From positions 1-64,000 of IMG/VR virus record IMGVR_UViG_3300042898_002309: DNA of 64,000 nucleotides; one strand, given 5' to 3'. Shown here one piece after another: positions 11,451 through 56,566 of the stretch. Origin of the DNA: a virus. The notes beneath the pieces are model-generated. The model did no database searches, was not told the DNA's origin, and saw nothing but the letters and a program-made list of their open reading frames with translations. Numbering within the stretch: the first letter of the stretch is position 1; each line of letters opens with the position of its first letter. A program made the position numbers and the translations under genes.

Positions 11451-14400
11451 TTATATTTTAGAAGAATACCTTTCATAATTTTTAATAAGTGTTTCAACAT
11501 CACCTGTTCTACCTGTTATACCAATTGTTTTTAAAATATGGCTTTTTATTTTAGCTTGACCTTCTTTTTGCCATGAATATGGACCACTTTCAATTTGGTA
11601 ATATGCTGCATCTTTTCCAGCTACCATCATAAATATATCTTCTATAATTTTTGCATATAAGGTCAATGTAGATCCAAAAGATGTACTTGTTACACTAATG
11701 AAGTTATTATAATCATCAAAACCTAAACCAGGTAAAGGTACAAATGCAGATGTTTCAGCTCCTACTTGTAATAGTAAATTTAACATGTGATTAGTAATAA
11801 AACCATTCATTTTAAAACCTTCAGTACCAAATGCATCTGATCTATTTTTAATTTTTTCCCATCTTTCATCATCATCAGGATCATATGCAAATAGTAAACC
11901 ACCTAATACACTGAAAAGAAATATTGATACTCCTTCTGATATCATTTTTTTGGTATCAATTTTATCTTCTTCAGACATATACGGATAATATTTACCTGCA
12001 GATTTAACTAATTTATATAATGAAACAATACCAGATATATAATAACCTCTTGATGTTTCACCTAATCCCCAATCATATCTTCTTCCCCATCTATTTTCTT
12101 TAGATAAATCAGCACCAAATCTATTTGTAAACATTGATGTTGTCCATTTTCTCATAAAGTAAAACATTCTATAAATAAAATATTTATTACCTTCTGCTTG
12201 TCCAAAATCATCATATACACCATATAATCTTCTAGAAATAGTTTGAAATTTATTTTTAAATTGTTTAAATTTAACTGATTGAGCAATTACTAACTCACTA
12301 CCTTCTATAAGATTTTCATTTTTAGATATTCTATTTTTAGCTTTTAATTCATCTACTGGAATAGAATATTTTTCAGAAATTGATTCAAGTGTATCTGTAG
12401 CTTCTACTGTATGATATATAGTTTTATTTCCCCATTCAGGATTAATACCTTTTTTTAATGAAAGTACACCATCTTTATCTAATTCCCAAGCATCAATATA
12501 TCTTATTGGTACAACTTTACCTGTTGAAGTAATTTGATCTACATATTGATGATGCATAAATCCACCAAATAATTGCATAGCAGCTTCCATCTCACCAAAT
12601 TTTCTGAATGAATACATCCAAGAACCATCAAGTGTGTCTTTAGCTCTAGTTCTTGATAAATTTTCACCAAATTGTTTTTCAGTTTTAAAGAATGCATCAA
12701 AAGATTGAATTATTTGTGAATTAAGAGATTGACTACCTCTAGCATATATTCCTACTGCTGACCATTCTAACATAGTTTTAGCAGCCCAAGGTCTTGCTAA
12801 TGCCATAGATTTTAATGATACATATTTACCTCCTGAAGCTTCAATAAGATTTTGTACTATCTGACCATATCTGTTTTTTAAATCTGAAGGAACATTAATA
12901 GCAAGTGTTGCTCTACCAGCTGCACTTAACATAAAGTTTGACATTTTATGCAACCAAGGATTACTCTCTTCAATACCTACAATTTTTCTACCATACAGTT
13001 CTCTTTCTACAAGTGATCTTACTTGCTCAAGTCTATTATATGTATCACCTTTATTTTTATTTACATTTACAAGTTTACCTGTAATTTTATTTATGGTTCT
13101 ACTTTGTTTATTAATATTTTTTAAACCATTTTTAGGATCTTCTAATACTGATAATATAGAATTAAGTAATGGTGCAGATTCAATTAATTTAGCCTGCATA
13201 TTAATTGACTGAATGTATTGAAATATACCAGGTAAAAAGTCTTTAGATGTTTTTTCAATATCTAAGTTATATGTACCTGTTACTGGTACGTAACTAATTT
13301 CATTACCTTGCATATCTGTTGTTACAAGATTTTTCTTTGCATCATAGTTTAAACCTAATTCATAATCATCATTAGATTTACCTATCATTTTTTGCCAATA
13401 GTAATCCCATGAACCTTTAAGTGCTTTTGCTTTATCAGATAATGCACCAGCTTGAAGATTTTCTAACATACCTTTTTTACCATATCTTGGTAAGTCATAC
13501 CATAATCTTGAACCAAGTGCAGCATCATTTTGAAACTTAATGTAATATTCTTTAATGGTTTCAATTAATTTATATTGATCATTATTTGCTGCTTTAAGTT
13601 TTAAATAGTCATAGTCTACAAATCTATCATCTTTTGCACTATTAGTTTCTCCTTTCTTATAAGGTCTTGGTAAATAGTTACCAGCATTATCTTTAATGGT
13701 ACCAATATAATCTTTCCAATCTTCCCCTATAGGTATTGTTCTATACTTAGGGTCATTTTTAATTCTAAATTCAGTGTGTCTTGAATTTGGTAATCCATTA
13801 ATTGTAAACTCAGTACCAGTTTGAGGATTGATTAATTTAGTTTTAATATAGTCTTCTTCATTATTTGGTACTGATACTGAATAACATGCAAGTCTTTCAA
13901 AATATATATCAATGTCGCCTGTTCTTGAGTATCTTTTTTTAGTAACATGGTTGTTAAAAAACCAATTTCTAAATTTTGTATCATCACTTAATAAATCTTT
14001 AAATGATTCTGAGTTTATTAAATCATCAACAGTAGTTTCACTAGTTTCACCTTTACCTAATATTTGTGTTAGATAATAGTTCATTGTCTCCATATAATAC
14101 TCAGTAGGTATCTTAGAAGAAATTTCTGCTAATTCACTATATATACCTTGTATTTCTGCAGATTCTAATGCAGTTAATCCATCTGGTGTATTTTCTTTTA
14201 TCAGTTTTAAATATCTTAATTTTTGCTCATCAGATAATGTTTCTGTTTTTGATTTAATAATATTGATATACTCATTTAATTCAGATGCTTGTGCTTTAGT
14301 TAACTTAGAAGTTTTTTGCTCTGCAAATTTAGAGTCATTAATTTTTTGTTGTAATTCTTTAATTTTTTGTATTCTCTCTGCTTTTAATTCAGAAGGAATA

Positions 14401-17400
14401 GGTTGACCTTGTGAATCTCTAAAAGAAAATAGTAAATCATAGATTTCACTAAATGCTTCACCAGTATTAAATTCTGATTTATCAGTTTTTTTATCTTGTA
14501 ATTCTTTTAATCTAGTGATTAATTCTTTTTTTCTTGTATAATAAGTTTCTGAATAAGCAACTCTAGTGTTTTGTCTTATCCATTTAGCATTCATCTCATT
14601 AAATACTTCTTTTGATACACCTTCTGCAATTATAGAATTAATAAATTCATTATATGATGTTTGAAGAGAACCTTCTTTTGCTACACTTTCATAAAAATCA
14701 GATGTCTTTTCTTTATGCTCTCTTAGTATAAGTGCTATTGATAAATCATATATGTTATTTTCAGGATCATCAACTTTAGGTGAACCATCAATATAATTTA
14801 ATTCATATAATTGTTGATATTTTCTCCATAAAGCTTGGGCAGATGAATACTTTTCAAATCTTTCTAATTCAGTTGAGAATATACTTAACTCAGAATTATA
14901 ATCTTCTAATGCTTGTTTTCTTGTTAACCATGCTAATCTATGTACAGGAGATTCATTAAATATATCATCAGCATCTAAAACTATTTTAGTATACTTATCA
15001 TACATATAATCTTTTTTAAATTGCTTTAATGCTGCAGCAGCAGTAGCAATTGCTTCTTTATCTTTAGTTTCTAAAGCTTTAGAATAATCATTTTGTAATT
15101 TAGCTTGTTCATATCTGTAACCTTTCCACTCATTTTTAAGTGTAAAAATTTCTTTTTTAACTACTTCACCTTTTTCATCATAACCTAATACCTCATCTCT
15201 ACTTGAAATTAAATCAGCAACTTGAGCTGTATTATTATAATTAATATTATTTGCTTTTAATATTGGTTCAAGTTTCCCTCTAAATACTTCAGTTTCATTA
15301 AGTGTCTTTAACTGTGCATCAGTTTTAATATTTTGAATATACATTGCTAATCCACCTACAATTGGGTCATTACTTGATGTATATGATTCTAAGAATCTAT
15401 TAAACCAAGATACATCTTTTGCATTACCAGATAGTATGTCTCTTAATTTAAGTTCATCAATTTTAAGATAATTGTATTCTGATATAAAGTCATTTATGTA
15501 TTTTTTTTCAACACCTTTTGCTATTATTTTTGCCATATCTTCATCAGCAATATTACCGGATACAACTTTATCATAAAAGTCTTCTAATTCTTCTGCAGTT
15601 AATTTATTCTTTAAAGCATTACCAAGATCTTTTTTAAGTTTATCATCTAAAAATTCTTGCATATAAGCCGTGTAGGTTCTATAAAAATCTACAGAGGAGT
15701 CTTTATATATCTTTTGCAGTAAAGTGATTGCAGACTTTGCATTTGTATTCATTTCACTAAGTAAATTACTTAATGCATTACTTGAATCTAAATTAAAATC
15801 TTCTTTAAATAATTCTACAGTATCATCAACAAACTCAATGTAATTTGATAAATTGGTTCTATAGATACCTAATACTGATAATGTACTTCTTTCACCAAAG
15901 TTTTTATCTTTTTGTATATCTAATAAATCCTTGTATATATTTTTAATAATATTATTAGTGATTTCTAAACTGCTTACAAAATTGATAGACTTATTAGTCA
16001 TATCTTTTATTCTTCTTAACTCAGATTCAATAACTTCTTCAATTATTTCATCTTTACTTGCTTTTCCAGTATCAACAATTGATTGGTATGGAGTAAGAGA
16101 TTTTTTAATTGCAGGTAATAATTCATTTGTCCCTTCTATAAACAATGTTTTTTGTAACATTGGATAAAGATTAGATTTTTTACTAAATTTTTTAGCTGAA
16201 TTTAGCATTGAAGATGTAGATGCATAAAAATTATCTATAGCACTCTGCATTGCATTTTCAGATACATTCTTTGTTAATATTTTTACCCTGGCATTTGTAT
16301 ATCTAGAGAACATTGCAATATCTTCATCTGTAACTAAGTCAGTTTGATACTCAAAATCTTTTGAAACCATCATATCAGCTAACTCACCTAGTGTAGTTGA
16401 TTCATTTATTTTAGAAATATTCTGAGTATTACTAAAAAATGATCTAAATATTTGTTTTATGCTATATAACAGATTTTTAATAAATGAAACAAATCCTTCT
16501 GATTGAGGAGTATTTGTTATTTTATCATATGCTGCCTGTTGCAAAGCATGAACTATAACTTCTTCCATAAATAATGGAGAGTCAGTTGTTAATTCAGGGT
16601 ACAATCTTTTAACTTTTTCTATAATTGCTTGACCCTCTGTAGTACTTTTTACTTGGGTAAATAAATTATTAAACAGTTTCACATTTTCAACTCTTATAGC
16701 ACCAATTAATGGATGACCAAACTCATGTAAAGCAGTCTCAAGATTAAAATTATCTCCCACAAAATAAACTATTCCACCAAAAAAGAAAGCAGGTTCACCA
16801 TTATAAGATATAACTCTATTCTTTAGAATTTGTTTTGCTTCTGCTTCAGTAATAATTTGATATGATGTTTTTAAGTTTTTAGATAATCTATCAGCTAGTA
16901 TTTCAGCAACCTCAGTAGCTCTTGCTTTTTGAGATACTTCTGCATCTAATGTTAAAAATTGTTCACCTTCAACTGATGCTCTCATAAACCTTGGTTCAGA
17001 TTCTTTTGTAGGAATATATTCATATACACCTTTAGTAACCTCTTGAGCCCTATTTTGTTCAACTAGTTTATTCCATAAGCCTTTACTTAAAGAATTTAAT
17101 TCTCCACTTCTAAGTAATATATCTTGATCAGCTAAACTATCACCTAATATATTATAAGTATCAGTTGCTAATCCCTGTCTTTGAAAATCTTCATTAATTT
17201 TAACTGCACCTACTGTAGCAATACTATTATCTAATTCATAATTAACAGTACCTACTTTAATATTATCTTTTATAATATCAAGATTATATCCATTATCACC
17301 ATATGCACTACTAAATTCTAATTTAATTTTAGATTCATCTTCAGTTTCTTCAAATGCATCAGTAAGACCAAGTGCTCTTTCATTTTTTTCTTCATATGCG

Positions 17401-17711
17401 TTTACACAGTCTTGTAGTGCATCAAATAATAATTCATTAGGTACAACTCTATATGTAGTATCATATATAGCATCAGATATATATGCTTTACTATTTGTAT
17501 TTGATTGTTTTTTATGTTTTTCAGTATCTATAGTAAATAATAATTCATCTGGAGCAGGTAATAGTCCATATTTAATTCTAGCATACTCTGTAAGTTTTTT
17601 ATTTATTATATTAAACTTATCAGTATTACCATCTATAATAGCTCTTACATCTGTAATATATTCTTTTTTAATTAAATAATCTAATGTATTTGATTGTACT
17701 ACACACTTCAT
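11451..17711 (-). CDS. giant virion ejection/cargo protein (GNAT-like, HExxH peptidase-like, LysM and hydrophobic C-terminal region)
   Basis: 2086 aa immediately downstream of the vRNAP; FQRQGLAT..Y, LHEFGHP, HTVEATDTLESISEKYSI.V..L...N; hydrophobic GVSIFLFSVLGGLLFAY. Confidence 0.8.
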   Translation of the reverse strand: MKCVVQSNTLDYLIKKEYITDVRAIIDGNTDKFNIINKKLTEYARIKYGLLPAPDELLFTIDTEKHKKQSNTNSKAYISDAIYDTTYRVVPNELLFDALQDCVNAYEEKNERALGLTDAFEETEDESKIKLEFSSAYGDNGYNLDIIKDNIKVGTVNYELDNSIATVGAVKINEDFQRQGLATDTYNILGDSLADQDILLRSGELNSLSKGLWNKLVEQNRAQEVTKGVYEYIPTKESEPRFMRASVEGEQFLTLDAEVSQKARATEVAEILADRLSKNLKTSYQIITEAEAKQILKNRVISYNGEPAFFFGGIVYFVGDNFNLETALHEFGHPLIGAIRVENVKLFNNLFTQVKSTTEGQAIIEKVKRLYPELTTDSPLFMEEVIVHALQQAAYDKITNTPQSEGFVSFIKNLLYSIKQIFRSFFSNTQNISKINESTTLGELADMMVSKDFEYQTDLVTDEDIAMFSRYTNARVKILTKNVSENAMQSAIDNFYASTSSMLNSAKKFSKKSNLYPMLQKTLFIEGTNELLPAIKKSLTPYQSIVDTGKASKDEIIEEVIESELRRIKDMTNKSINFVSSLEITNNIIKNIYKDLLDIQKDKNFGERSTLSVLGIYRTNLSNYIEFVDDTVELFKEDFNLDSSNALSNLLSEMNTNAKSAITLLQKIYKDSSVDFYRTYTAYMQEFLDDKLKKDLGNALKNKLTAEELEDFYDKVVSGNIADEDMAKIIAKGVEKKYINDFISEYNYLKIDELKLRDILSGNAKDVSWFNRFLESYTSSNDPIVGGLAMYIQNIKTDAQLKTLNETEVFRGKLEPILKANNINYNNTAQVADLISSRDEVLGYDEKGEVVKKEIFTLKNEWKGYRYEQAKLQNDYSKALETKDKEAIATAAAALKQFKKDYMYDKYTKIVLDADDIFNESPVHRLAWLTRKQALEDYNSELSIFSTELERFEKYSSAQALWRKYQQLYELNYIDGSPKVDDPENNIYDLSIALILREHKEKTSDFYESVAKEGSLQTSYNEFINSIIAEGVSKEVFNEMNAKWIRQNTRVAYSETYYTRKKELITRLKELQDKKTDKSEFNTGEAFSEIYDLLFSFRDSQGQPIPSELKAERIQKIKELQQKINDSKFAEQKTSKLTKAQASELNEYINIIKSKTETLSDEQKLRYLKLIKENTPDGLTALESAEIQGIYSELAEISSKIPTEYYMETMNYYLTQILGKGETSETTVDDLINSESFKDLLSDDTKFRNWFFNNHVTKKRYSRTGDIDIYFERLACYSVSVPNNEEDYIKTKLINPQTGTEFTINGLPNSRHTEFRIKNDPKYRTIPIGEDWKDYIGTIKDNAGNYLPRPYKKGETNSAKDDRFVDYDYLKLKAANNDQYKLIETIKEYYIKFQNDAALGSRLWYDLPRYGKKGMLENLQAGALSDKAKALKGSWDYYWQKMIGKSNDDYELGLNYDAKKNLVTTDMQGNEISYVPVTGTYNLDIEKTSKDFLPGIFQYIQSINMQAKLIESAPLLNSILSVLEDPKNGLKNINKQSRTINKITGKLVNVNKNKGDTYNRLEQVRSLVERELYGRKIVGIEESNPWLHKMSNFMLSAAGRATLAINVPSDLKNRYGQIVQNLIEASGGKYVSLKSMALARPWAAKTMLEWSAVGIYARGSQSLNSQIIQSFDAFFKTEKQFGENLSRTRAKDTLDGSWMYSFRKFGEMEAAMQLFGGFMHHQYVDQITSTGKVVPIRYIDAWELDKDGVLSLKKGINPEWGNKTIYHTVEATDTLESISEKYSIPVDELKAKNRISKNENLIEGSELVIAQSVKFKQFKNKFQTISRRLYGVYDDFGQAEGNKYFIYRMFYFMRKWTTSMFTNRFGADLSKENRWGRRYDWGLGETSRGYYISGIVSLYKLVKSAGKYYPYMSEEDKIDTKKMISEGVSIFLFSVLGGLLFAYDPDDDERWEKIKNRSDAFGTEGFKMNGFITNHMLNLLLQVGAETSAFVPLPGLGFDDYNNFISVTSTSFGSTLTLYAKIIEDIFMMVAGKDAAYYQIESGPYSWQKEGQAKIKSHILKTIGITGRTGDVETLIKNYERYSSKI

Positions 17712-43745: not shown

Positions 43746-46700
43746 TTATTTGATTCTTTCTATGATATATCCTGCTTTTTCTAGTGCTTTAATTTCATCA
43801 TCATCTAAGTCATCTTCCCATGATTCAATATCACCACCATTTTTTTCTTGTTGTAATGCACCTACACCTAATGTTCCTGCAATTGGAGCAACTGCCCAAA
43901 CTTTATTAAATAACTTAGCAGCTGATTTTCCATTATCTTTTTTTATTATTTTAACAAACTGAGTATCTACTGGAGTATTTCCTAAAGCAACTTCTTTAAA
44001 CATTTTATCTGCTTGTTCAGGAGTTATTATATCATCAGGAGATAAATCAAAATATTTTCTAAGTTCCATTATTCTTGCCTGTACTTCTGTTGGGTCTGAT
44101 AAATAATCTATAAGTTTATCAACTTCTTTACTATTATTTATTTTTTTTCTTTCTTTAAGATAAGGATAATCAATTGCATCTTCAATAATTTTTTTTTGAT
44201 CAGTTAATTCTAAAGATTGTGCTTTTGTCCAATCATGTGTTAATTCATGTATTCCTGTACTTAATCTATTTTTAGGATCTAACCATCTTGAAACCCAATT
44301 ACCATGTCTTATAAATTGTGGTTTAGTATCTAAAGCATTAGGCTTAGTTTTAATTAATTTATCAACTTTAGGAATTTCAGATTCTAATTTATTTTTTGAA
44401 AGTGGAATATAAGTATTTTCAGGCATATTTAAAATTTCTCCTGGAATATCTTCATGAGTATAATTAATTCCTGCATTATCTTTATGAATATTAGGAAATT
44501 CAGTTAATTGCTCTATTATAGGATATTCTTGCAATCTTCCTGCAGGTTTATATCCACTAGTAAATTTAATTACTTCTTCTAAATTATGTTTTGCAATTGG
44601 TGAATTTTCAACTGTACCAAATACTGAATGATAGTTAGGTGATTTTAAACTTTCTTTATAACTATTAATAATTTTTTCTTGAGTTGCAGGATGACTCACC
44701 CATCCTTGCATCCAATTTTCAGCTTCTCTTAATGTTTTAAGTCTCTCTGGTGTTTTAGTTATAACATCATAAAATCTACCAGGTAATTTACCAATTCCTT
44801 TAATCATGTTAACAGCATTAGGAGAACCTGGTAATGTTTTACCAATTGCTTTAGTACCTTGATTTAAATATTTAGCACCTTGATTTATATCTTGAGCAAG
44901 AGATTTAACACCTTGTATAGCAGTTCTACCAGATCCTGGTACACCTGCAAATGCTAAACCTGTTTCTAAAAGACCTGTTGCATAATTACCTTTATGTAAT
45001 TCATTACCAGCATGACCACCCCAATATCCTGGATTAACTATATTAGCAAGATCAGAAATTTCAAATTGGCCTTTAGTTTGTCCTGTAGCTTTTAAATATT
45101 TATCATACTCAGGACTTTCAGTATTCATTAAACCTCTTCCCATTCCAGGTATATATGCTTGATTACCTGTTAATGCATTACCTGCCATAAGAATTGGGTG
45201 AGCAATAGCAGCTTGAGTTACATCTAAAGCTTTTTCAGCAAAAGACATTTTATTATATTTATTCCACTGTTCTTTTTCAAATGCTGCCTGTTCTTTTTTT
45301 CTTGCTTCACGTTTTGCAGTTTCTTGTGGAGAATTATAAAATGCTGCATTATTAATATCACTTACAACTTGTTTAGGTATTACTGTACGTGTATTATCAC
45401 TTACAGGTCCTCTAGGAATTGCATCATTTATTGCTTTTTGTTTTGCAAGTTTTTCTTTTGCAAGTTTTATAGCTTTTTCTTTATTAAGTTCTTGTTGATA
45501 TTTTTTTACAAGATCTTGCTTATTTAATTCTGGTGAGTCTGAATTTTTCTTTATATATTGTTGCTTATGATCTTGCATAAGTAAATTAAACTGAGGTGCA
45601 GGTTGCTCTAATGGTTTTTTATATACTGTTTTACCACCTTGTGCTTTATCTAATATACCTCCATTTTTAAATCCTCCTTCAATAGTTGCTGGTTGTAAAT
45701 GCCATTGATCTAATGCTGCACCAGTACCTATTGTTAAAGGTATAGCAGCTTTATATATATTAGGATTAGTCATGTCAAATTTACCATTATTTCTTAACAA
45801 AGATTTAATATTTTTTGGATTAATTATAGAATAGTTATTTTTATTAATTGGTGCACGCAAACCTCTTAGTACATCTCCATTAAATCCAGCATACATACCA
45901 GCATCTTTGATATTTTTAAAATTAACTGCATCATATCCTAATTTTTTAGCAATATCCGTAACTTCAGCTGTATCATATTTTTTCTTTGGCTTTATTCCCA
46001 AAACATTAAAATTTTCCTGACCAATTCTATTAATTAACTCATCATGATCAAGTTTTGTCCATAGTTTATTTTTAGCATCAAAAATTAATGGGTTTTTTGT
46101 TTTAGCAGCTAACTCATATCTTTTAGAAAAAGGATTTAATTTTAGTCTGTATGAATCAGCATCTTTAGGAGAATTAGCTAAATAAACCCCATCTTCTAAA
46201 TCACCTACTTTACCTTTTCTAAATTCTTGAATATTACCTTTATTAGAACCATGATATCCTGTAACATAGTTATCTCCAAAAGCATTTTTAAAGTTTTCAC
46301 TATTCTGTTGTACAAATTGTTCAGGAGTTCCTTTATAAGCAGAACCATCTGAATTTTTCATCCAAGTTCCATTAGTTTTAGTAGCTTCTTCTATTTTAGA
46401 ATACTCTTTTAATAAAGGTTCATCTGCAAGTATTTCTTTATTCCAATTACCCCAATTAATTTCAGACTGAAAAGGAGTTCTATAATCGTCTACTTTAGAT
46501 AATAAACCTGTTTCTGTTCCTAATGCTTTACCTAAATATTTAACACCTGGTTTTACACCTAATCTTACTGCATCATCAAGTAATCCTGAACCTGGTATAA
46601 ATCTTAATCCTTCTAAAAAAGCAGAACCATAATTACCCTTTCCTATATTTCTTACAACTTTATCTCCCGCATCAAAAAGATTTAATGTACTATTTAATGT

Positions 46701-49700
46701 ATTACCTACAAGATTTCTTCCTTCTACTACACCAGGATCAATACCTGCCATACGCATTTCATTAATATTATGTGGCATATTTTCTGCACCTCCTCCTGAT
46801 ATAGCATATTCTGCAGCAGTAAATGGATTAGTAATATATTCCCATGCTCTATTTGAATTACTTTGTGTTGGTGCTGCTTGTACTGCATCAGGTTCACCTA
46901 TTTGACCTACACCTGCACTTTTCCAATGCATGTTCTCAATATCATCTAAATCTTTTTGAGTAATTGCATATCCATTTTTTTTACCACTTGCAATATAATC
47001 TTTTTGAGAAGTTGCAATTTTATCTTTAACTTTTGTATATGCATCTTTACCTGTTACTTTAAACTTTTCATCAAATAATTTTTGTGCAGTTTTTTGTTGT
47101 ACAGTGGGTTGAACTGGTTTCTTTTTACTTGGTGTAACATTTTTTTCATTACTCCATCCAGCATTAGATTTACTATTTTGATCATTATTATATCTATCAA
47201 GTGCTTGTTTTTTTTGTATTGCTAAACCTTGTCCAACTATTTGTCCTAATGGAGAAGTATAAAAATTATAAGGTTTTTCTTTAACAGCAACTTTAGGTTG
47301 TACTTCACCTTTTTTTTGATAAGAATCTAATGCTCCACCTTGTCTAAATCCTCCTTCAATAGTTGCTGGTTGTAAATGCCATTTAGTTCTAGGTACTTTT
47401 TTATATCCCTGCAACCAATGTTGTTTATAAACATTAACATTTGGATGATTAAATGAAAGAGGTGCATTACCTGGTGTTGTAATTTCATAACCAAAATTTT
47501 CAAATGGAGATACACCATTTGTATTAAAATTTGCTATATCATGAGAATTAGTTACTTCAACCATATGAGGACCTTCAAATTTATTCCAATTCCACACTCT
47601 ATTATTTTTTCCACCAGCAAATGATGTTTTATCAATTACTTCTTGAGGAAACTTATATTTTTTAGCATCAAATGGAACACCTTGACTATAATATGTTTCT
47701 TCAAATGCTTTATTACTAAAACTTGGATCATATACATCTACTTGATTACTTCTAAATACACCAGATTGTTGTGCATCTTCTAATCCTTCTTTACCTAACA
47801 TTCTATATGCTGATGTAGGTTCAGGTTTCCATGCCCAGGGATTTACATCACTTACTTTAGATAATAAACCTGTTTCTGTTCCTAATGCTTTACCAACAGT
47901 TTTAGCACCTTGTGCAACATCATCAGCAACTGACTTAAATCCTGCTTTTGATCCTATTAATCCTGCTGCAATTTCTGCAGTTCCTGCTGCTGCTTCTTTC
48001 CAATCTTTAGTACCTTGTGATACATCATACCAATCTCTAACATTTTTAGGAGTTTGATAAAAACTATTAGCCATACCTGCGGCCATTGCAGCATTACCTA
48101 CAGTAGCACCTGGTACAGCAGCCATTCCTGGAAGTGACATTGCTCCTATAGCACCTGCGGCTTCTAATGCAGCTGGAGCAGCAAAAGGTAAAGTCCAAAA
48201 CCAATCAGCAGAACCTGCACTTTGTGGACCAAAATTAGGACCATGTAGTTTACGTGCCAATTCTTTTGACTGTTCTTGCCATTGCCAGTTTCTATATTTT
48301 TCTGCATATTCTTTAGGAGAAAGTTGTATTCCTTTTGGTCTATTATTATTAGCAGGTGTAACAGTTACTTCATCTAGATATCCAGTACTAGATATTATGC
48401 CTTTAGCTTTGTCACTTTCATATTTAGCTTTTTGTTGTTGATAATTTTTATACCATTCCTCATCAGGTAATGTTCCATCTGGTTCTCCCCCTTCTTTAAA
48501 ATTTTCAGTAAGAACTGCTGGTTTTAAATGTTTTTTATTATCTTGAATTACATTAGTATTAGAAGTACCAGTATTAATATTATAATTTTGACTACCAGCA
48601 GCCTCATCTGTCCATGGAACTTCTTTGTATGTAGTAACTGGTCTTTGTCTTTTTATATTTCCTAATACAGGATCTTTAATCCAATAATCTTCTACACCTT
48701 GAACTGGTACACGGAGTGTTCTTTGTACAGCTTTTTGTACAGGTATAGTCATTTGTTCTCTAACAGGTTTAGATAAAATGGATTGCTCAGGTCTTTTAAA
48801 TTCTTGATATGGTATATTATTAAGTGGTGTAACTTCTTCAATAGATTGTACAGGTTGTACAGGTTTTTTATATACATTATGTATTACTGGTTTTTTATAT
48901 TGTCCAACTCTATGTAATCCATTATTATATGTAACAAAACCTACTGGTTTATTTAATTTTTTAGTTTTATCTGAAAAAGAACCAATATTTAAATAATCCA
49001 TATAATCTTTGTCACTGAGTTTTATACCAAATTGTTTATCTTGATCTTTTAAATTTTTTAATGAAGTATTATATGACTCATATTTTTTTGTAGCAGAATT
49101 TATAGTTTGATTTTTTGGTGTTTTTTTAGTTTTATCTGCTTTAATAACATTATTTATTCCACTATTATAAAAAGATAAACTATCAGATTCAGCTGCAAAG
49201 GCTTTATTATAGTCATCTCTATTAGTATGTGTTACTGTTCTACCTGTTTGAGCTTTATGAAGTATACCACCATATTTACGTGTAACTACAGGTTGAGCAC
49301 CTCTTTGTTGTTGCTGATATTCAAGATTTTTTTGTTGGAAAGTATCACTATCTCTTTTTCTTCTAGCTGCCTCTCTTTGTTCTTGAGTATATCCTTCAGG
49401 TAAATCTAAATTCTCATCACCAGCTAATACACCATATCTTGGACCGGCATAATGAACAGGTTTTTTATATGGTTTAGCTAGAATAATTTGTTGTTCAGGT
49501 CTTGTAAATTCTTGATATGATATAGGTTTAAGAGGAGTAACTTCCTCAACAGGTTTTACTGGGTATTTTTTTAAATAATCTGCAGTAGGTGTATTACCAT
49601 TTTTATCTAGTATTTTTTTATTAACAGGTTTTTTATCTATTGGTTTTACTGATTGTATTGAAGAAGATAATCCTAATGTTTTTAATTTTGATTGAGGTAT

Positions 49701-51269
49701 TCCAGATGCACCATATTTTTTAAATCTTATTTTTATTTCATCATCTGAAAGCATGTTTGCAGGTTTTATAGCAAGAGGATCATAATAAGGCAGCGTTGTA
49801 ATATATCCAGGTAATTTTTTATCTATTTCTTCATCTTTTTTAGTTCTATAAATCCATTCATTTATAGATTTTTCTGGATCTTTTAATTTAATTGCTGCAC
49901 CAATATTGATTAATTTTTTTTTATAATTTGCTTTTTTTATAGGATCATTTTCTAATTTATAACGTATTATATTGGTTGTCCAACTATTTGAATATGATGG
50001 AGCATTAGATGTAGTCATTTTTTGTATTTTAGCTATATCTGGTGATACATTCTCTGCAAATGTATATTTTTTAGGTTGATAAGTAATTTGTCCTTGTGGT
50101 TTTATTCTAGTATCATATTTTAACAATGGAGCTTTTGGATCTATAGCTCCTGTAATTACGTCAGACATATAAATAGCATTAGCATTTTTATTATTTTTAA
50201 TAATAGTTTTATTTGAACTAGAAACACTAGGGTGCGCTAAGGTTTCTTTTTGAATGTTTTTTAAATCCCAAGAACCATCATACCAAAGACCAATTTCTGG
50301 ATTATTATAATATGGTTTTAAATTATCATAAAAACCTTTTAACTTAATAGCATTATTATATAATGATAAACTATCAGAAGCTGTAGCAAGTCCTGTTTGT
50401 GCTTTAACTAGTTCATGTTGTACAAAACCACCCGCTTTAAATCCTTTCATCATTGGTGCCACTTCTTTATAGTGTTCCGCAAAATATTGTGCTTCTTCAG
50501 GAGTTCTGAAGTTTATATCTTCTTTACTTGGGGGAGGGTTTTCATTATACTCTAATTCATTACCACCTTTATCTTGTAACAATGGTACTGCTTGATTTCC
50601 CATAGAAGCCATAAAATGTGTACCTAAATCTCCATTTCCAAACTCATAAGTTTTAGGATTAGGTGAAACCATCCTTTGAGCTGCTGGATTTTTAAATTCG
50701 TTTTCAGTAGCCATTCTAGCTTTCATCATAGCATTCATAGCATTTTTGTCAACAGGTATTTCTTCTGCTCTAGGACCCGCTGTATTTTGTGGACCACCAT
50801 CTTGTGCTTCAGGTAATTCTTCTACTACATAACCACCATCTCTATATGCTTGTATTTCTTCATCAGTAAGATCAAGATCTTCATAATCAGCTTCTCCACC
50901 ATTTTCTTTAGTAGGTAGATTAAAACCATAATTTAATTCATAGTGACTTAATGGATTAGGATTAAGATTAATAGTACCAAGTTTAGAACCACCCTTCTTA
51001 GCCATAGGTGTTTCATCTACATAAGATGCACCAGGAAAGTTATAATCTTGATTAGGTTGCATCATTGATCCAGGACCAACATTAGGTTGAGCCCATACAG
51101 GATAAGGTACACCTTGCATAGTAATATCATTACCAGGGATTCTAGTTTTTTGACCTGGATATTTCCATTGACCTGCTGGATCAGTTATTATATCTTTTGG
51201 TTTACCTGGTGCTTTTGCTTTACCTAATTCTGATACAGCTTTAGATAATACTTTTTTATTGAATCCCAT
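43746..51269 (-). CDS. modular polyvalent effector/cargo polyprotein (two ART-like domains, HExxH metallopeptidase, internal repeats)
   Basis: 2507 aa; YHGS..GVY....A..Y..GYDAV..PKNIKS..NNG.FD (ART-PolyVal-like); YRMLG..G..D...SG.FR (ART-like); IHELTH...YLSDPTEVQAR; repeated cassette borders. Confidence 0.8.
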   Translation of the reverse strand: MGFNKKVLSKAVSELGKAKAPGKPKDIITDPAGQWKYPGQKTRIPGNDITMQGVPYPVWAQPNVGPGSMMQPNQDYNFPGASYVDETPMAKKGGSKLGTINLNPNPLSHYELNYGFNLPTKENGGEADYEDLDLTDEEIQAYRDGGYVVEELPEAQDGGPQNTAGPRAEEIPVDKNAMNAMMKARMATENEFKNPAAQRMVSPNPKTYEFGNGDLGTHFMASMGNQAVPLLQDKGGNELEYNENPPPSKEDINFRTPEEAQYFAEHYKEVAPMMKGFKAGGFVQHELVKAQTGLATASDSLSLYNNAIKLKGFYDNLKPYYNNPEIGLWYDGSWDLKNIQKETLAHPSVSSSNKTIIKNNKNANAIYMSDVITGAIDPKAPLLKYDTRIKPQGQITYQPKKYTFAENVSPDIAKIQKMTTSNAPSYSNSWTTNIIRYKLENDPIKKANYKKKLINIGAAIKLKDPEKSINEWIYRTKKDEEIDKKLPGYITTLPYYDPLAIKPANMLSDDEIKIRFKKYGASGIPQSKLKTLGLSSSIQSVKPIDKKPVNKKILDKNGNTPTADYLKKYPVKPVEEVTPLKPISYQEFTRPEQQIILAKPYKKPVHYAGPRYGVLAGDENLDLPEGYTQEQREAARRKRDSDTFQQKNLEYQQQQRGAQPVVTRKYGGILHKAQTGRTVTHTNRDDYNKAFAAESDSLSFYNSGINNVIKADKTKKTPKNQTINSATKKYESYNTSLKNLKDQDKQFGIKLSDKDYMDYLNIGSFSDKTKKLNKPVGFVTYNNGLHRVGQYKKPVIHNVYKKPVQPVQSIEEVTPLNNIPYQEFKRPEQSILSKPVREQMTIPVQKAVQRTLRVPVQGVEDYWIKDPVLGNIKRQRPVTTYKEVPWTDEAAGSQNYNINTGTSNTNVIQDNKKHLKPAVLTENFKEGGEPDGTLPDEEWYKNYQQQKAKYESDKAKGIISSTGYLDEVTVTPANNNRPKGIQLSPKEYAEKYRNWQWQEQSKELARKLHGPNFGPQSAGSADWFWTLPFAAPAALEAAGAIGAMSLPGMAAVPGATVGNAAMAAGMANSFYQTPKNVRDWYDVSQGTKDWKEAAAGTAEIAAGLIGSKAGFKSVADDVAQGAKTVGKALGTETGLLSKVSDVNPWAWKPEPTSAYRMLGKEGLEDAQQSGVFRSNQVDVYDPSFSNKAFEETYYSQGVPFDAKKYKFPQEVIDKTSFAGGKNNRVWNWNKFEGPHMVEVTNSHDIANFNTNGVSPFENFGYEITTPGNAPLSFNHPNVNVYKQHWLQGYKKVPRTKWHLQPATIEGGFRQGGALDSYQKKGEVQPKVAVKEKPYNFYTSPLGQIVGQGLAIQKKQALDRYNNDQNSKSNAGWSNEKNVTPSKKKPVQPTVQQKTAQKLFDEKFKVTGKDAYTKVKDKIATSQKDYIASGKKNGYAITQKDLDDIENMHWKSAGVGQIGEPDAVQAAPTQSNSNRAWEYITNPFTAAEYAISGGGAENMPHNINEMRMAGIDPGVVEGRNLVGNTLNSTLNLFDAGDKVVRNIGKGNYGSAFLEGLRFIPGSGLLDDAVRLGVKPGVKYLGKALGTETGLLSKVDDYRTPFQSEINWGNWNKEILADEPLLKEYSKIEEATKTNGTWMKNSDGSAYKGTPEQFVQQNSENFKNAFGDNYVTGYHGSNKGNIQEFRKGKVGDLEDGVYLANSPKDADSYRLKLNPFSKRYELAAKTKNPLIFDAKNKLWTKLDHDELINRIGQENFNVLGIKPKKKYDTAEVTDIAKKLGYDAVNFKNIKDAGMYAGFNGDVLRGLRAPINKNNYSIINPKNIKSLLRNNGKFDMTNPNIYKAAIPLTIGTGAALDQWHLQPATIEGGFKNGGILDKAQGGKTVYKKPLEQPAPQFNLLMQDHKQQYIKKNSDSPELNKQDLVKKYQQELNKEKAIKLAKEKLAKQKAINDAIPRGPVSDNTRTVIPKQVVSDINNAAFYNSPQETAKREARKKEQAAFEKEQWNKYNKMSFAEKALDVTQAAIAHPILMAGNALTGNQAYIPGMGRGLMNTESPEYDKYLKATGQTKGQFEISDLANIVNPGYWGGHAGNELHKGNYATGLLETGLAFAGVPGSGRTAIQGVKSLAQDINQGAKYLNQGTKAIGKTLPGSPNAVNMIKGIGKLPGRFYDVITKTPERLKTLREAENWMQGWVSHPATQEKIINSYKESLKSPNYHSVFGTVENSPIAKHNLEEVIKFTSGYKPAGRLQEYPIIEQLTEFPNIHKDNAGINYTHEDIPGEILNMPENTYIPLSKNKLESEIPKVDKLIKTKPNALDTKPQFIRHGNWVSRWLDPKNRLSTGIHELTHDWTKAQSLELTDQKKIIEDAIDYPYLKERKKINNSKEVDKLIDYLSDPTEVQARIMELRKYFDLSPDDIITPEQADKMFKEVALGNTPVDTQFVKIIKKDNGKSAAKLFNKVWAVAPIAGTLGVGALQQEKNGGDIESWEDDLDDDEIKALEKAGYIIERIK
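45668..45706. repeat. 39-bp direct repeat B, copy 2 (encodes WHLQPATIEGGF)
   Basis: taaatcctccttcaatagttgctggttgtaaatgccatt, identical to 47345-47383. Confidence 0.95.
46491..46532. repeat. 42-bp direct repeat A, copy 2 (encodes GKALGTETGLLSKV)
   Basis: tactttagataataaacctgtttctgttcctaatgctttacc, identical to 47853-47894. Confidence 0.95.
47345..47383. repeat. 39-bp direct repeat B, copy 1
   Basis: Identical to 45668-45706. Confidence 0.95.
47853..47894. repeat. 42-bp direct repeat A, copy 1
   Basis: Identical to 46491-46532. Confidence 0.95.
48783..49555. repeat. diverged ~65-bp direct repeat pair (48783-48847 and 49491-49555)
   Basis: Both encode EEVTPL..I.YQEF.RPEQ; roughly 80% DNA identity by eye. 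Confidence 0.8.
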
Positions 51270-54200
51270 TATCTGAGTGATATTTGATTTTTACTATTGC
51301 TCAATTTAATAATCATATTAACATCCTGTGAATCAGTTCTGCTCAAATATAAGAAATTTAAATAATTCCTGAATTTTTTTCTTTGCAGTTCTGTTTTATT
51401 ATAATTTAAATTTGTTGGAGTTAATGTTTTTATATATCCATTAGCTTGTGTTACCCATATTGATTCTTGATCATAACTTCCTGCTAATACTGTAGTACTA
51501 GGAACTAATGGTCCTGTTGGAGGATAATTAGATCCAATTGGGAACTCACCTCTATTTCTTGTTATATCCCAGAATTGATTAAATCTATATTTGTTTTCTT
51601 CTTTAGAGAATAGTATATCTATAGATGTAGGATTAATAAGAGGATATGTATTAGCAAGAGTAATATTATTTTTAGGAAAGATATTAAGATTTAAGTATCC
51701 TGATACTTGTTCTGAATTAAATATTACTGCTTTATCAAAATTATAATCCAACACATGGAATTGATCTACACAGTTATTAGAATGATTTTTATAGCATTCA
51801 AGTATATACTCTATAGATTTTAAAGTGGTAACTGTCTGTCCCGTAATAAGGGGTATCTCAACTTCAAATGGATGTTGAACTCCATAAAATTTACAGTAAC
51901 TATTACATACTGCATTATGTTTCCATACTTTACCTCCTTTAGTTGTTGCAAAATATTGTCTTGCTGGTAATACAAAGTCTGGATGCCAGTCATGAAAAGA
52001 TATCCAATGTTGACTTTTAGGGTCAAAACTTGTAGTCCATGAAGCACTTTCAAATATAAGTGGATTACCTAATTCAACTTTTGCTATACCATCTACTAAG
52101 AAATAATCACCATAAGAAAAATATACTACTCTATTTGCATATTGAGGTTTTAATTTATAATCTTTTTTACAGAAATATATAACACCATTATAATTATCAT
52201 ATACTGCTTGAGTACCAATACCTGCTACAGGATTATCTGTATGTGGATATTCTGGAAAATCTTCAGTAAGTTTATATGGTAAGAATAAACTAAACCACCA
52301 TTTCATTCCTGCTTGAGATATTTCTGTTAAACCTTGAGCAAATGAAAATACTCTTCCTTGATTTTGAGACATATAATACATTCCTGCAGGAGTACCAATA
52401 ACACCAAATTTATTTTGAGAAGACCCATACTCATACTCTACATCTGATATAGTAATATTTTGAGGAGGATTAGAAAATAAGCCACCATCACCTATAGTAA
52501 GTTTAGTACCTAACTCAGTTGTAAGAGTATCTACACCTTGATACATTAATGGACTAGCATTTTGGAATGTAATAAACATACCAGTTTTAGCATAAGGTTT
52601 TATACTAGTAATTCTATTCTTAAAGTCATGAAAATTATTTACTAAATATACAAACCAAGAATCTTTTGTAGACCAGTTTTGTTGTGGTAGTGAATATACT
52701 ACTCTATCAGGATAATAAGTATAACATAATTGGGATACAACAGGATTATAATATCTTGATTGTAGATTACCTTGTGAAAAATATTGTGTAAATATTTTAG
52801 ATATACTTAATGAATAGTCATATGCATAATAGTTACCCTGTGTTATTGTATTAGGGTCCATATTAAACATTTCTGGTAAATTAGTATATGAATTTACATC
52901 ATAATTTTTTTGCCAAGTTTCTAAACCAGGTTGTCTAAAATCTACTATTACATCTGACTCAACAAAGAAATCTCTTACTGAAGAATTAGCTAAATAAAAA
53001 TATGAATTTTTAGCACCAAATACTCCAGGATATGTATCTGGAAAACCTGATGCTGTATCATTTGAATACTTATATTTACGTATACTATTTACATAGTAAT
53101 CTAAGTTATAAAAACCTGTTGGTAAAAGCCCTGTTCCAGCAGGTGGATTAATTAAATCTGCAATTGAACTTGGTGTAAGATCACCTACATCATATTCTTC
53201 ACTGTTAGCCCAAAATCTTGGTTCAGCTATCATATGTCTTAGAATATAATTATATTCATAACCATCAGGTTGTCCATATAACCAGTCATAGAAAAAGAAC
53301 ATGTTGTTTTTTTCAGTATATCTATTTACATAAGTGTCTCCTCCAAATAATACAGGAGTTTGAGTTATTGTTTCTAAAGTAACTAACTTAGCTGCAGTAC
53401 CATAAGGAGTACTAATAGTACACCAAAAACTACTAAATGTTACTGGTATATTTTGATTATTATAATTTAATTTTTGTTCTGAAGGTGTAATAGGTATTTC
53501 TTTAAGTGAATCAAGTTGACCATATTGATTTCTTAATCTAACTTTGATACCAACATAATGACTTGCAATACTAAGATTAAATTCATTAGTCTTTTTTGAT
53601 TTCATGTCAACTGGTAATCCAATACCTGCTTGTATAGCAGTACCCAATGTTACAAGTGAAGTATCACCATATCCTGTAGCTGTAGAAGGATTAAGAATAT
53701 AATCAGGTCCAAAATTTTGATTTAAATTATTAGTAGTTCTTAAAGTAACAGTTGTCTGTCTTTGAAGATTATTAATTATATAACTAATTCCACTGAAAGG
53801 CTTAAGACCTTGAATATTATTTTTTAAATATAAACTATCTTCAATATTAAATCTTTGTCTTTTACCTGTAACTGGTGCAGCAAAACTACTATAGAAACCT
53901 TCTGCAATAGCTTGTAATGCATATTGTCTATATGGTATTAAAGCATATACTAATCTAATTGTTGTATTTGCTCCTTCTGAAAAATAAAAAAATGATTGTT
54001 GAACAAAATTAGCAATACCAAAAATACCTGCATATTGATATTTAGGTACATCTTTAGTATATGATCTTCCGGTAACACCTGTACCACCTAGTCCTGCACT
54101 GGTAGTATTTGCTGTTATATATGCACCATATATACCTGCAAAAAGCGGATTACCAAGAGGATTTAAGGCATCAGTTAAATATAAACCTGTACTTAAATAA

Positions 54201-56566
54201 GTACTTAATGCAGCTTGATAAGTTGTTTGCCCAACTTGCATAACTCCTGCTGCAACATGTGCTGCTGTTACTACTGCTCCTAATCCATCACTACCACCTG
54301 TTGCTGGAGTTGGAGCAGCTTCATTAATTGTCCATTTACCTCCTTGTTGTAATGCAAGTTCAATAACACCGGCTAATATAGCTGCGGCTACTGTTATATC
54401 AGCTAATAGTTTAAATTTTGGATGATTATTAGGTTCTTGAAAATACTGTACTGAAGTACCTCTTAAACTACCATATATTTTTAATTCAGTAACAGATAAA
54501 TATGGATTTCTAAAATTAGTATCTGGTGAATGAAAAGTCATTAAATTAGTTGGTATTGTTTGATCTACAATTTGATCACTACTATTTGTTAATTTAATAT
54601 ATGGATCATTAACACCTGAAACATTTCCACCTAATAAACTTGAAAGTGGTCTAATGGTATTAAAAGGATAATTAGGATATAAACCAATTCTGTTTCCAGT
54701 ATTGTTACCTTTAATATTATAGGTACGCATATTATTAACCATACCTTTAGCAATAATACTTCTGTTACCCTCTCTAGACCCTCTTAGTATTTCATAACCT
54801 ACTATTCCTGGTATATCATTACCATCATTATCTTTTGGTAAAAATATATTAGTAAAGTTTACACCCATTAATCTAATACTAGTACCTCCATTAGAATAAT
54901 GATTTGTAAGTAAAGAACCTGCTGTAATATTATCAGGAAACTTATGATGTCTTATTGGTTCAGCACATAAATCAAATTGTGGATCAGTTGTACCTGACCA
55001 ACACTGAGATGATGAATCCCATATATCATGTCTATTATCTGGATACTTTTCTGTTGATTCCCAGTATCCCATTCTACCTGTTGCAATAATTTTACCACCA
55101 TCAGGTAATGTTGTTACAGGAGGTAAACCACCTAAAGTTGCTGTATTATATACTTCAAATACTCTATCATTTGTATCTAAAACATCTATACCTGTTGCAG
55201 GAGCTGTTTCTAATGACCCTTTGTATTGCATTGGGGCACGTCCAGGAATATGATATGATGAAGATTTATCTCCAGTACTATATACCCATCTAATAAAGAA
55301 AGCATATACTTCATCTCTTAGATAACTTGTATTGCTTCCTCCTTTTACATAATAATCTGCAGGATATTCAACTGATACCCATTGTGATCTTATTTGATTA
55401 GCTAAAGGTTGATAGTTAAAATCAAATTTAGATCTTGGTGCAATTTTTAATAAATATGTATTAACCTCAGTAATCTGATCTGATGTTTCATATACAGGAG
55501 ATCTTAATGGAAGTACTTCAACAGGTATAGTAATAAGATCATCTTTAATTTGATCTAAATGTACTACAGATGTACTTGTAGAATATAATCCAATTCTTTT
55601 TGCTACCGCACCTTGGTTAATTACTTGTATTACTACTAATTCAAATTCATCAAAATGTTTTGTATCAGCTGTAATTAATATATCAATACATCCTTGTACA
55701 TCATTAATATTCCAAATTGGTTGAGTATTACTTGGTGAAAAATAATCTGTAACTCTTTGACCTTTAATAGTATATGCAAGAGTTGCAAAGTATGATCCAT
55801 TTCTTAATACACCTCCACCAATACCTGGTACAACTTGAATAGTTGGTGTATCCATTAATCTTGAAAGTCTTAATTCTTCACAATTTAATGTAGTTAAATC
55901 TTTACATATAATACATCCTACAGGAATATAACCACCTGGAGCTGGTACTATAATATTATTTTCATCTTTACATTCTTGATTCCATTGAATTCCTGGCCAT
56001 TGAATATTTACACCTGATCCATTTGCATATGTATTACTACCAATCCATATATAATCAGGAGTTGGCCATAATGCATCATCTCCAACATTTAAATATCTAT
56101 CAGGATTTCTACCATCAGCAAAATATACAGACCATGAACAGTCTTCTTTTTCTCTTGATGCACCTGTAATTAAAAATTGTTTATCAAAATTTAAACAAAG
56201 ATCTTGCACCATAATTCTATATCTACAACTATCTTCTTCAAATAATCCTATTTCACATCCAGTAGCTGCACCAACTCCTGATGTTGGATGTGCTACAGTA
56301 AAAAGGACCCATTTATCACTATATAAATGTATTGCACCTATAATATATTTTTTACCAGAAAGTGTTGCTCCTGCTTCTGCACATAATATATTTGATGTTT
56401 CATTTGATAATGTACCAACATTACCTTCTAAAGTATTGTTAACTGCATTACGTGCATGAGTCCACATGCCCTCACTTACAAATGTAGGATCTGAATCTTT
56501 ATTTAATCCCTTTATAAAGGTGTTAGTTTTATTTTGACTTGTATCTTGTATATTTTTCTTTGCCAT
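51269..56566 (-). CDS. tail stabilisation / muzzle protein (P22 gp10-like, crAss muzzle)
   Basis: 1765 aa; KGLNKD...A.N.V...G...NE N-terminus, PIRHHKFPD, LFGGDTY, WISFHDW.P; position downstream of the ring proteins. Confidence 0.82.
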   Translation of the reverse strand: MAKKNIQDTSQNKTNTFIKGLNKDSDPTFVSEGMWTHARNAVNNTLEGNVGTLSNETSNILCAEAGATLSGKKYIIGAIHLYSDKWVLFTVAHPTSGVGAATGCEIGLFEEDSCRYRIMVQDLCLNFDKQFLITGASREKEDCSWSVYFADGRNPDRYLNVGDDALWPTPDYIWIGSNTYANGSGVNIQWPGIQWNQECKDENNIIVPAPGGYIPVGCIICKDLTTLNCEELRLSRLMDTPTIQVVPGIGGGVLRNGSYFATLAYTIKGQRVTDYFSPSNTQPIWNINDVQGCIDILITADTKHFDEFELVVIQVINQGAVAKRIGLYSTSTSVVHLDQIKDDLITIPVEVLPLRSPVYETSDQITEVNTYLLKIAPRSKFDFNYQPLANQIRSQWVSVEYPADYYVKGGSNTSYLRDEVYAFFIRWVYSTGDKSSSYHIPGRAPMQYKGSLETAPATGIDVLDTNDRVFEVYNTATLGGLPPVTTLPDGGKIIATGRMGYWESTEKYPDNRHDIWDSSSQCWSGTTDPQFDLCAEPIRHHKFPDNITAGSLLTNHYSNGGTSIRLMGVNFTNIFLPKDNDGNDIPGIVGYEILRGSREGNRSIIAKGMVNNMRTYNIKGNNTGNRIGLYPNYPFNTIRPLSSLLGGNVSGVNDPYIKLTNSSDQIVDQTIPTNLMTFHSPDTNFRNPYLSVTELKIYGSLRGTSVQYFQEPNNHPKFKLLADITVAAAILAGVIELALQQGGKWTINEAAPTPATGGSDGLGAVVTAAHVAAGVMQVGQTTYQAALSTYLSTGLYLTDALNPLGNPLFAGIYGAYITANTTSAGLGGTGVTGRSYTKDVPKYQYAGIFGIANFVQQSFFYFSEGANTTIRLVYALIPYRQYALQAIAEGFYSSFAAPVTGKRQRFNIEDSLYLKNNIQGLKPFSGISYIINNLQRQTTVTLRTTNNLNQNFGPDYILNPSTATGYGDTSLVTLGTAIQAGIGLPVDMKSKKTNEFNLSIASHYVGIKVRLRNQYGQLDSLKEIPITPSEQKLNYNNQNIPVTFSSFWCTISTPYGTAAKLVTLETITQTPVLFGGDTYVNRYTEKNNMFFFYDWLYGQPDGYEYNYILRHMIAEPRFWANSEEYDVGDLTPSSIADLINPPAGTGLLPTGFYNLDYYVNSIRKYKYSNDTASGFPDTYPGVFGAKNSYFYLANSSVRDFFVESDVIVDFRQPGLETWQKNYDVNSYTNLPEMFNMDPNTITQGNYYAYDYSLSISKIFTQYFSQGNLQSRYYNPVVSQLCYTYYPDRVVYSLPQQNWSTKDSWFVYLVNNFHDFKNRITSIKPYAKTGMFITFQNASPLMYQGVDTLTTELGTKLTIGDGGLFSNPPQNITISDVEYEYGSSQNKFGVIGTPAGMYYMSQNQGRVFSFAQGLTEISQAGMKWWFSLFLPYKLTEDFPEYPHTDNPVAGIGTQAVYDNYNGVIYFCKKDYKLKPQYANRVVYFSYGDYFLVDGIAKVELGNPLIFESASWTTSFDPKSQHWISFHDWHPDFVLPARQYFATTKGGKVWKHNAVCNSYCKFYGVQHPFEVEIPLITGQTVTTLKSIEYILECYKNHSNNCVDQFHVLDYNFDKAVIFNSEQVSGYLNLNIFPKNNITLANTYPLINPTSIDILFSKEENKYRFNQFWDITRNRGEFPIGSNYPPTGPLVPSTTVLAGSYDQESIWVTQANGYIKTLTPTNLNYNKTELQRKKFRNYLNFLYLSRTDSQDVNMIIKLSNSKNQISLR

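Follow-up and report, generated by a model that had tools for sequence, protein, structure and literature searches.

The DNA analysed here (the window) is a stretch of 64,000 nt from a virus, positions 1 to 64,000 of the IMG/VR record IMGVR_UViG_3300042898_002309, and the phage is an uncultured crass-like phage with a record of about 97 kb. The minus strand of the window carries a gene for a polyvalent protein of 2507 aa (P0001), recognised from its open reading frame (ORF), the neighbouring muzzle gene and a Pfam match to ART-PolyVal, an ADP-ribosyltransferase (ART) domain. Two short sequences, A and B, are each present twice in this gene without any difference in their letters. The present work concerns the origin of these repeats and their relation to the payload domains that lie between them.

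Exact repeats and payload domains of the P0001 gene

The features that carry the argument are listed below, in window positions and in the order in which the gene is read.

43746-51269, minus strand: polyvalent protein gene P0001, 2507 aa, 7524 nt
47895-48179, minus strand: Gly/Ala-rich pre-segment of cassette 1, aa 1031-1125
47853-47894, minus strand: repeat A copy 1, 42 nt, GKALGTETGLLSKV, aa 1126-1139 (repeat scan and exact-word script)
47382-47852, minus strand: payload 1, aa 1140-1296, a family without Pfam model, with an ART-like predicted fold
47345-47383, minus strand: repeat B copy 1, 39 nt, WHLQPATIEGGF, aa 1297-1308, followed by RQGG and then by the linker
46533-47345, minus strand: linker and conserved pre-module, the latter at aa 1479-1579 (46533-46835)
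46491-46532, minus strand: repeat A copy 2, 42 nt, aa 1580-1593, joined to the ART-PolyVal payload (same repeat scans)
45705-46490, minus strand: payload 2, aa 1594-1855, an N-terminal extension (FQSEINWGNW...) and ART-PolyVal
45668-45706, minus strand: repeat B copy 2, 39 nt, aa 1856-1867, followed by KNGG

Both pairs of repeats stand where the original prediction had placed them, at 42 nt for A and 39 nt for B. The first nucleotide of B is the second one of the codon for aa 1296, and the B peptide WHLQPATIEGGF is encoded at 47346-47381 and 45669-45704. The copies are spaced by 1362 nt (A) and 1677 nt (B), and it is correct, as had been pointed out, that both values are multiples of 3; this is nevertheless trivial, since both copies lie within one ORF in the same codon phase. 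Exact recombination between the copies of A, or between those of B, would keep the frame for the same reason.

The next longest exact repeat found by the exact-word script in the 7524-nt gene measures only 17 nt, which rules out a chance origin of A and B. With the codon usage of the window, two independent encodings of the same peptide would be identical in nucleotides with P 1.3e-4 for A and 2.4e-3 for B. Convergent selection of the peptides is thus ruled out as the source of the nucleotide identity and, since identical wobble positions are improbable for independent encodings, the copies of each repeat share descent. On the payload side of each repeat the identity stops sharply, whereas on the outer side it is lost gradually, over some 20 nt. 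Across the entire 97-kb record, both repeats are confined to the P0001 gene, apart from one diverged B-like copy:

48498-48530, minus strand: diverged third B-like word HLKPAVLTENF, followed by KEGG

Neither A nor B folds as RNA (z -0.16 to 1.41). An internal start within B was dismissed, as AAGGAGG followed by ATG occurs in copy 2 only and is out of frame.

The two domains enclosed by the repeats had been described as unrelated. At the level of sequence this is right, as profile comparison revealed no kinship between the payload families (hhalign probability <1%), but both domains probably have the ART fold. Payload 2 is, as judged by its profile match, a bona fide ART-PolyVal domain: PF18760 matches aa 1672-1831 (window 45777-46256) over profile positions 10-140 of 140, with E 2.8e-12 and 48.0 bits for a cut-off of 31.2, and 24 instances of the family were aligned. 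Payload 1 has no Pfam match and belongs to a family of 383 representatives of 50%-identity clusters at E<=1e-3 (88 at E<=1e-10), found at varied positions in proteins of 161-2617 aa. Its AF2 model has a mean predicted local distance difference test score (pLDDT) of 66 with a confident core. VIA-align of this model gave a best Z of 5.4 with Tpt1, followed by TreTu (4.7), Scabin (3.7), DarT (3.6) and LT (3.5); about two-thirds of the 50 chains listed belong to the ART superfamily, as counted from entry titles, and the ART-superfamily alignments all cover model residues 34-187. Foldseek returned nothing at E<=0.001 for the model, and an ESM search gave a weak lead to Tox-ART-HYD1 (0.86). An arginine, R44 in the numbering of the model, is nearly invariant in the family.

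The stretch between the two cassettes had been called a linker. It contains the pre-module (RAWEYITNPFTAAEYAISGGGAENMPHNINEMRMAGIDPGV...LRFIPG), which is better conserved than any other module of the family, is 60-96% identical in amino acids in P0002-P0010 and has no Pfam family of its own. The pre-module is kept in proteins that have nothing in common downstream of it, and the payloads that come after it in 66 proteins fall into at least 21 unrelated clusters.

Further downstream, the gene carries a third payload, a further junction word and an acidic tag.

44817-44834, minus strand: junction word LPGSPN, aa 2146-2151, ahead of the third payload
43860-44849, minus strand: third payload, aa 2141-2470, with HExxH (assigned by motif)
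43749-43859, minus strand: C-terminal acidic tag (GGDIESWEDDLDDDEIKALEKAGYIIERIK), with a second occurrence at aa 118-152

In the third payload the motif reads HELTH (aa 2341-2345, window 44235-44249). No Pfam family exceeded the threshold in aa 2141-2470, and homologous domains come after the pre-module in P0008 and P0025. Judging from these domain assignments, the payloads would act as ADP-ribosylating and proteolytic effectors. LPGSPN lies between two domains in 9 of 41 homologs. The two copies of the acidic tag are at 50814-50918 (aa 118-152) and 43749-43853 (aa 2472-2506), and the tag pattern, ...L[TD]xEEIxxYxxxGYxVEE, has 25 copies in 13 of the 41 homologs; the tag is a candidate packaging or docking signal.

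Conserved junctions and changing payloads in related phages

The expectation that conserved A and B borders would have different domains behind them in related phages was borne out when A and B were searched for. An A-like peptide, KALGTE[TSE]GLLS[KN], was found by degenerate-pattern scans, with synonymous changes, in six other IMG/VR viral contigs, in which 32-37 of the 42 nt are identical to A. In all six, a hydrophobic Gly/Ala-rich pre-segment precedes it and a domain follows, and these downstream domains comprise payload-1-like ones and at least three others. In the homolog P0043 a ...GLLSKV junction leads into yet another domain. On these comparisons, A is conserved as a peptide and not as a DNA site, and it flanks the domains of the payload-1 family natively on their N-terminal side. 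The A word, with 12 aa identical, was also observed at aa 165-176 of P0046, far upstream of the pre-module, and A is therefore not bound to one protein position.

A homolog of 725 aa (L021) bears directly on how the gene was put together. Pre-module, A and payload 1 form one continuous stretch in it. Its pre-module matches the left context of A copy 2 (86% in nucleotides, 84% in amino acids) and its payload 1 matches the right context of A copy 1 (91% and 85%, respectively), while its A differs from repeat A at 4 of 42 nt (38/42 identical). An ancestral unit of the kind seen in L021 has thus been split at A in the P0001 gene.

B is much more restricted. Copies that are nucleotide-identical over 36-52 nt turned up in G001, a viral contig, and in L014 and L015, both metagenome contigs; in L015, a 52-nt stretch that includes B is 100% identical to the region of B copy 2. 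The homologous proteins of these three contigs are 800-1150 aa long and share one order: pre-segment, a 230-aa domain X, B, KNGG and the acidic C-terminal tag also present in P0001. Their pre-segment is about 89% identical in nucleotides to that of cassette 1, and the homology ends at GAKTVGK, at the first 6 nt of A copy 1. Domain X (L013:6820-7509 for G001, L014:5270-5959 and L015:1254-1943) occupies the payload-1 slot. Its AF2 model has a pLDDT of 40.5, an ESM search gave a lead to ADPrib_exo_Tox (0.90), a PDB profile search gave nothing, and R...S...ExE-like motifs were seen by eye (SRRID, SWSGG, GERELLL). Should domain X be an ART, there would be three different ART-type domains that replace one another at a single slot.

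The number of cassettes also varies, as had been foreseen: there is one in G001, L014 and L015 (domain X), one in L021 and three in the phage studied here. Scans of IMG/VR with the pre-module returned one contig only.

A census of proteins gave a broader view of the junctions and set a limit to the original prediction, in which A...B was a general cassette format. Among 170 near-full instances of payload 1, the right neighbour is B in a single one, P0001 itself; the ART-PolyVal unit is joined directly, with no border, in 30, the LPGSPN word followed by another domain comes next in 20, and GG occurs within 20 aa in 35. B as a closing border is particular to this phage and one small clade. For the best 150 of the 383 payload-1 representatives, most phmmer alignments to cassette 1 begin upstream of A, at about residues 6-12, and the full-length alignments end at about residues 181-184, just ahead of B. 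The domains of homologs, as precomputed with Pfam, include YkuD, lysozymes, SLT, SET, LysM and ART-PolyVal.

Homology breakpoints point to the same joints. When P0001 was compared with 14 relatives, 11 of 41 distinct ends of homology blocks fell at GG or at the edges of A and B, against 7.9% expected (P 2.5e-4, a rough value). The most recurrent ends are at aa 123, 158, 95 and 1593. The homology of P0002, P0003 and P0006 has its first residue precisely at aa 1309, directly behind B copy 1, and blocks of eight relatives end at aa 1579-1594, that is, at A copy 2. An xxGG is present at most of the recurrent breakpoints with relatives (aa 95, 123-125, 158, 668, 929, 1308-1312 and 1874), and ...TRKQGG|TLESYQKKG in P0002 corresponds to ...FRQGG|ALDSYQKKG in P0001. 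In all five copies of B seen, [KR]xGG comes next. The xxGG may be a module joint or a processing site.

The N-terminal module of P0001 (aa 1-95, window 50985-51269), with the pattern DxxGQWxxPG...ITMxGVxYPV..., is internal or C-terminal in P0023, P0027, P0034, P0037, L003 and L004, so that even the head of the protein is movable.

Probable recombination at junction sequences and competing readings

Two observations frame the interpretation: junction words are conserved while the payloads behind the same junction, and the number of modules, differ between phages; and homology breakpoints fall at A, B and GG. We consider it rather likely that the P0001 gene is a mosaic that arose when related phage genes recombined at conserved junction sequences. 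The protein would be a chain of modules, in each of which a pre-segment is followed by a payload enzyme domain and then by a short tail with xxGG at its end. A would encode the junction peptide that closes the conserved pre-module, and B the one that closes the payload in this phage clade. A crossover inside the conserved junction sequences would have split the ancestral unit of pre-module, A and payload 1, so that A copy 2 kept the pre-module side and gained the ART-PolyVal domain, while A copy 1 kept the payload-1 side and came to lie behind another pre-segment. The presence of two letter-identical copies of each repeat would then be due to the gene being a recent mosaic. Thus, the exact repeats are best read as footprints of recombination and as potential substrates for more, and at 39-42 bp they would still be usable for in-frame deletion, duplication and exchange. 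The cassette architecture of the original prediction is in this way supported on an evolutionary scale, as recombination at junction words.

The exact identity of the repeats had been regarded as a sign of exchange. It does indicate shared descent, but it needs no special mechanism. Among the DNA-level relatives, 8-20% of same-residue codons differ synonymously, and with such a background exact identity requires neither gene conversion nor selection at the level of DNA. Nucleotide-level selection on B across phages is likewise not claimed, because synonymous differences in the pre-segment amount to 8-9% per codon (P ~0.3 for 13 codons); the absence of differences in B reaches P ~0.01 only when the more diverged tail is taken as background.

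Several points weigh against the mosaic interpretation or against parts of it. Zero synonymous differences in 13-14 codons have a P of 0.04-0.34, depending on the flank taken as background, and the exact identity of A and B is accordingly no younger than the background divergence. The contig's own junctions, from payload 1 to B, from A to ART, from ART to B and from B to the linker, are taken as assembled, and the order and number of recombination events are not reconstructable from G001, L014, L015 and L021. The ART fold predicted for payload 1 comes from a middling model and low Z scores. Finally, crAss_CARG1 (PF25725), the portal-binding domain of gp45, the crass-like phage cargo protein with which P0001 is compared below, was not detected in P0001 itself (Pfam, E<=0.1).

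A reading that is compatible with the mosaic, and to which we give a lesser though real chance, is that A and B are kept for what their peptides do, as places, at xxGG or close to it, where the polyprotein is cut, or as elements for docking or for a hinge; the nucleotide identity would then be a by-product of recent descent. The conservation of the A peptide with synonymous changes across distant phages fits it, as do the [KR]xGG after every B and the coincidence of module boundaries with GG. In the AF2 model, B lies in a low-confidence stretch that is neither helix nor strand, and A in a low-confidence helix-loop-helix ahead of the domain core, which also agrees with this reading. Polyvalent proteins have been proposed to be self-processed by metallopeptidase domains (PMC5512222), and P0001 has its HExxH module; Pfam, however, recognises no protease family in the gene. 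Moreover, gp45 is described as one chain spanning tail and capsid, and the words 'cleav' and 'proteolytic' are absent from that report (PMC10172136).

It is doubtful, in our opinion, that the exact repeats of 39-42 bp are maintained as recombination sites at which the population continually deletes, duplicates and swaps payloads in frame, in the manner of the 'magazine' of the original prediction. Such active switching would be served by repeats that are exact and in phase, and close relatives do differ in cassette number and content. Lengths of 39-42 bp are also within the range used by phage annealing recombinases, as known from the arms of lambda Red recombineering. The phage moreover encodes, at 5281-6288 on the plus strand, a PD-(D/E)XK nuclease that is exonuclease VIII-like and stands beside an ORF of 417 aa. 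On the other hand, the IMG/VR scans gave no A-A or B-B junction variants, a weak test because exact flanks were required; A varies at synonymous sites in other phages, which indicates that the peptide is kept and not the DNA site; with the pre-segment as background, the cross-phage identity of B lacks significance; and neither RecT nor ERF was found in the phage record. The 417-aa ORF (4044-5297, plus strand), which is without family, overlaps the nuclease ORF and is a candidate single-strand annealing partner of the nuclease.

A wider proposal joins elements of both and is, to our mind, similarly improbable. The junction words (A, B, LPGSPN and xxGG) would be connectors with two roles, as host-side cut sites of an injected polyprotein and as homology patches for the trade of modules, with exact repeats still generating cassette-number variants in the population. 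If this were true, the protein family would be the phage counterpart of the MARTX toxins, a plug-and-play effector array.

A chimeric assembly, in which two co-occurring phage variants with A and B were threaded into one contig and the tandem arrangement is unreal, is most unlikely: the junctions around B (payload 1 to B, B to the linker, ART to B) are indeed known only from this contig, and the three contigs with the P0001 protein (NCBI, JGI and ENA) may be one assembly deposited three times, but the final k-mers of usual metagenome assemblers exceed 39-42 nt, nothing interrupts the ORF, the copies of each repeat have different flanks, as real paralogous junctions should, P0002 (2463 aa) and P0008 (2974 aa) are relatives comparable in length and number of modules, and even a chimera would mean two variants with different payloads between identical borders, which supports cassette exchange.

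Genomic place and known systems

The P0001 gene lies directly downstream of a crassvirus muzzle gene on the same strand, with one base common to both.

51269-56566, minus strand: muzzle protein gene (PF25731 crAss_MUZ, E 2.2e-31)

It sits within a minus-strand run of giant genes in the window, the virion block, and is followed after a gap of 60 nt by the gene of an 852-aa protein. Between the muzzle protein and its counterparts in Cellulophaga and Flavobacterium phages the identity is about 25%, and these relatives make a flavobacterium the likely host. Among 50,697 GenBank phage records, no match was found to the gene by megablast or tblastn, nor to the ART payload by tblastn, and PHROGs holds no family for the gene. 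The lack of a GenBank phage match, together with the low identity of the muzzle protein, places the phage far from cultured relatives.

In PhiCrAss001, the gene after the muzzle gene encodes gp45. This cargo protein, C1, is kept in the tail and the capsid and is the first to be ejected (PMC10172136). With 90.8 kDa and no described enzyme domains, gp45 is thought to form an ejection channel (Bayfield et al. 2023; PMC10172136). P0001 is the positional counterpart of gp45, and the virion cargo position assigned to it by the original prediction is supported by this slot beside the muzzle gene. It resembles gp45 further in its hydrophobic segments and through homologs that carry crAss_CARG1 (P0017, P0022, P0024, P0025, P0038 and P0039) and have other modules in common with it. 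In contrast to gp45, P0001 has about three times the length and carries ART-type payloads, and CARG1 was not detectable in it. By synteny with gp45, P0001 is probably carried in the particle and injected into the host.

P0001 belongs to a known kind of protein. A polyvalent protein combines between 2 and 15 unrelated domains, of which several are enzymes, with MPTase-PolyVal being frequent, and ART-PolyVal is a hallmark domain defined in this set (Iyer, Burroughs, Anand, de Souza, Aravind 2017; PMC5512222). P0001 is likewise a giant polypeptide with several unrelated enzyme domains, ART-PolyVal included, and its gene lies in the virion block, with delivery along with the DNA presumed; on the evidence of these several unrelated domains and of the virion-block gene, it is a polyvalent protein. 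Its metallopeptidase-like module could process the protein, as the motif suggests, although the MPTase-PolyVal model was not detected. A difference is that conserved junction words (A, B, LPGSPN and xxGG) mark exchange points in the P0001 family. In the 2017 study, variation of cassettes by recombination is no more than a possibility considered for one kinase locus, crass-like phages are not mentioned in it, and the words 'linker' and 'shuffl' are absent (PMC5512222).

Three further systems offer partial parallels. MARTX toxins are bacterial exotoxins with RTX repeats, in which one polypeptide delivers up to five modular effector domains in series, the set differing by strain, and a cysteine protease domain releases the effectors (PMC6315884). 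P0001 also carries serial effector modules, but no RTX or cysteine protease Pfam family is present in it (E<=0.1) and its delivery would be by phage ejection. In CdiA, the VENN word borders the constant region and the variable toxin, and the DNA that encodes it is believed to supply the homology by which tips are replaced (PMC7662968). The A word similarly lies between the conserved pre-module and varied payloads. Whereas in CdiA a single C-terminal tip goes with an immunity gene and downstream orphan cassettes, P0001 has two-sided borders and serial payloads in one frame, with neither an immunity gene nor orphan copies in the genome. T4 Alt is an ART packaged in the virion; once injected, it modifies host proteins as infection begins (PMC5512222). 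By synteny, P0001 would also carry ARTs in the virion; Alt is a single-domain protein, in contrast to the two or three ART-type domains of different clades that serve here as alternative or serial modules.

In the literature searched, no paper links Crassvirales cargo proteins to polyvalent effectors or junction words. Crass-like phages are among the most abundant phages known and, to our knowledge, their cargo proteins have been described structurally, for PhiCrAss001, and not as carriers of host-modifying enzymes. Our results suggest that the gp45 position can hold a gene whose product carries effectors in highly modular form, with recognisable exchange points. Looking behind junction words offers a route to the injected effectors of uncultured phages. 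A large unannotated family of ART-like domains (383 clusters at 50% identity) is a second outcome. The locus also provides a testable model for the diversification of the first-strike arsenal of phages, in parallel to the MARTX and polymorphic toxins of bacteria.

P0001 is not the only giant protein of the virion block with a module of interest: a 2086-aa protein (11451-17711, minus strand) has a LysM domain near its C-terminus and is thus a second one, with a cell-wall-binding module.

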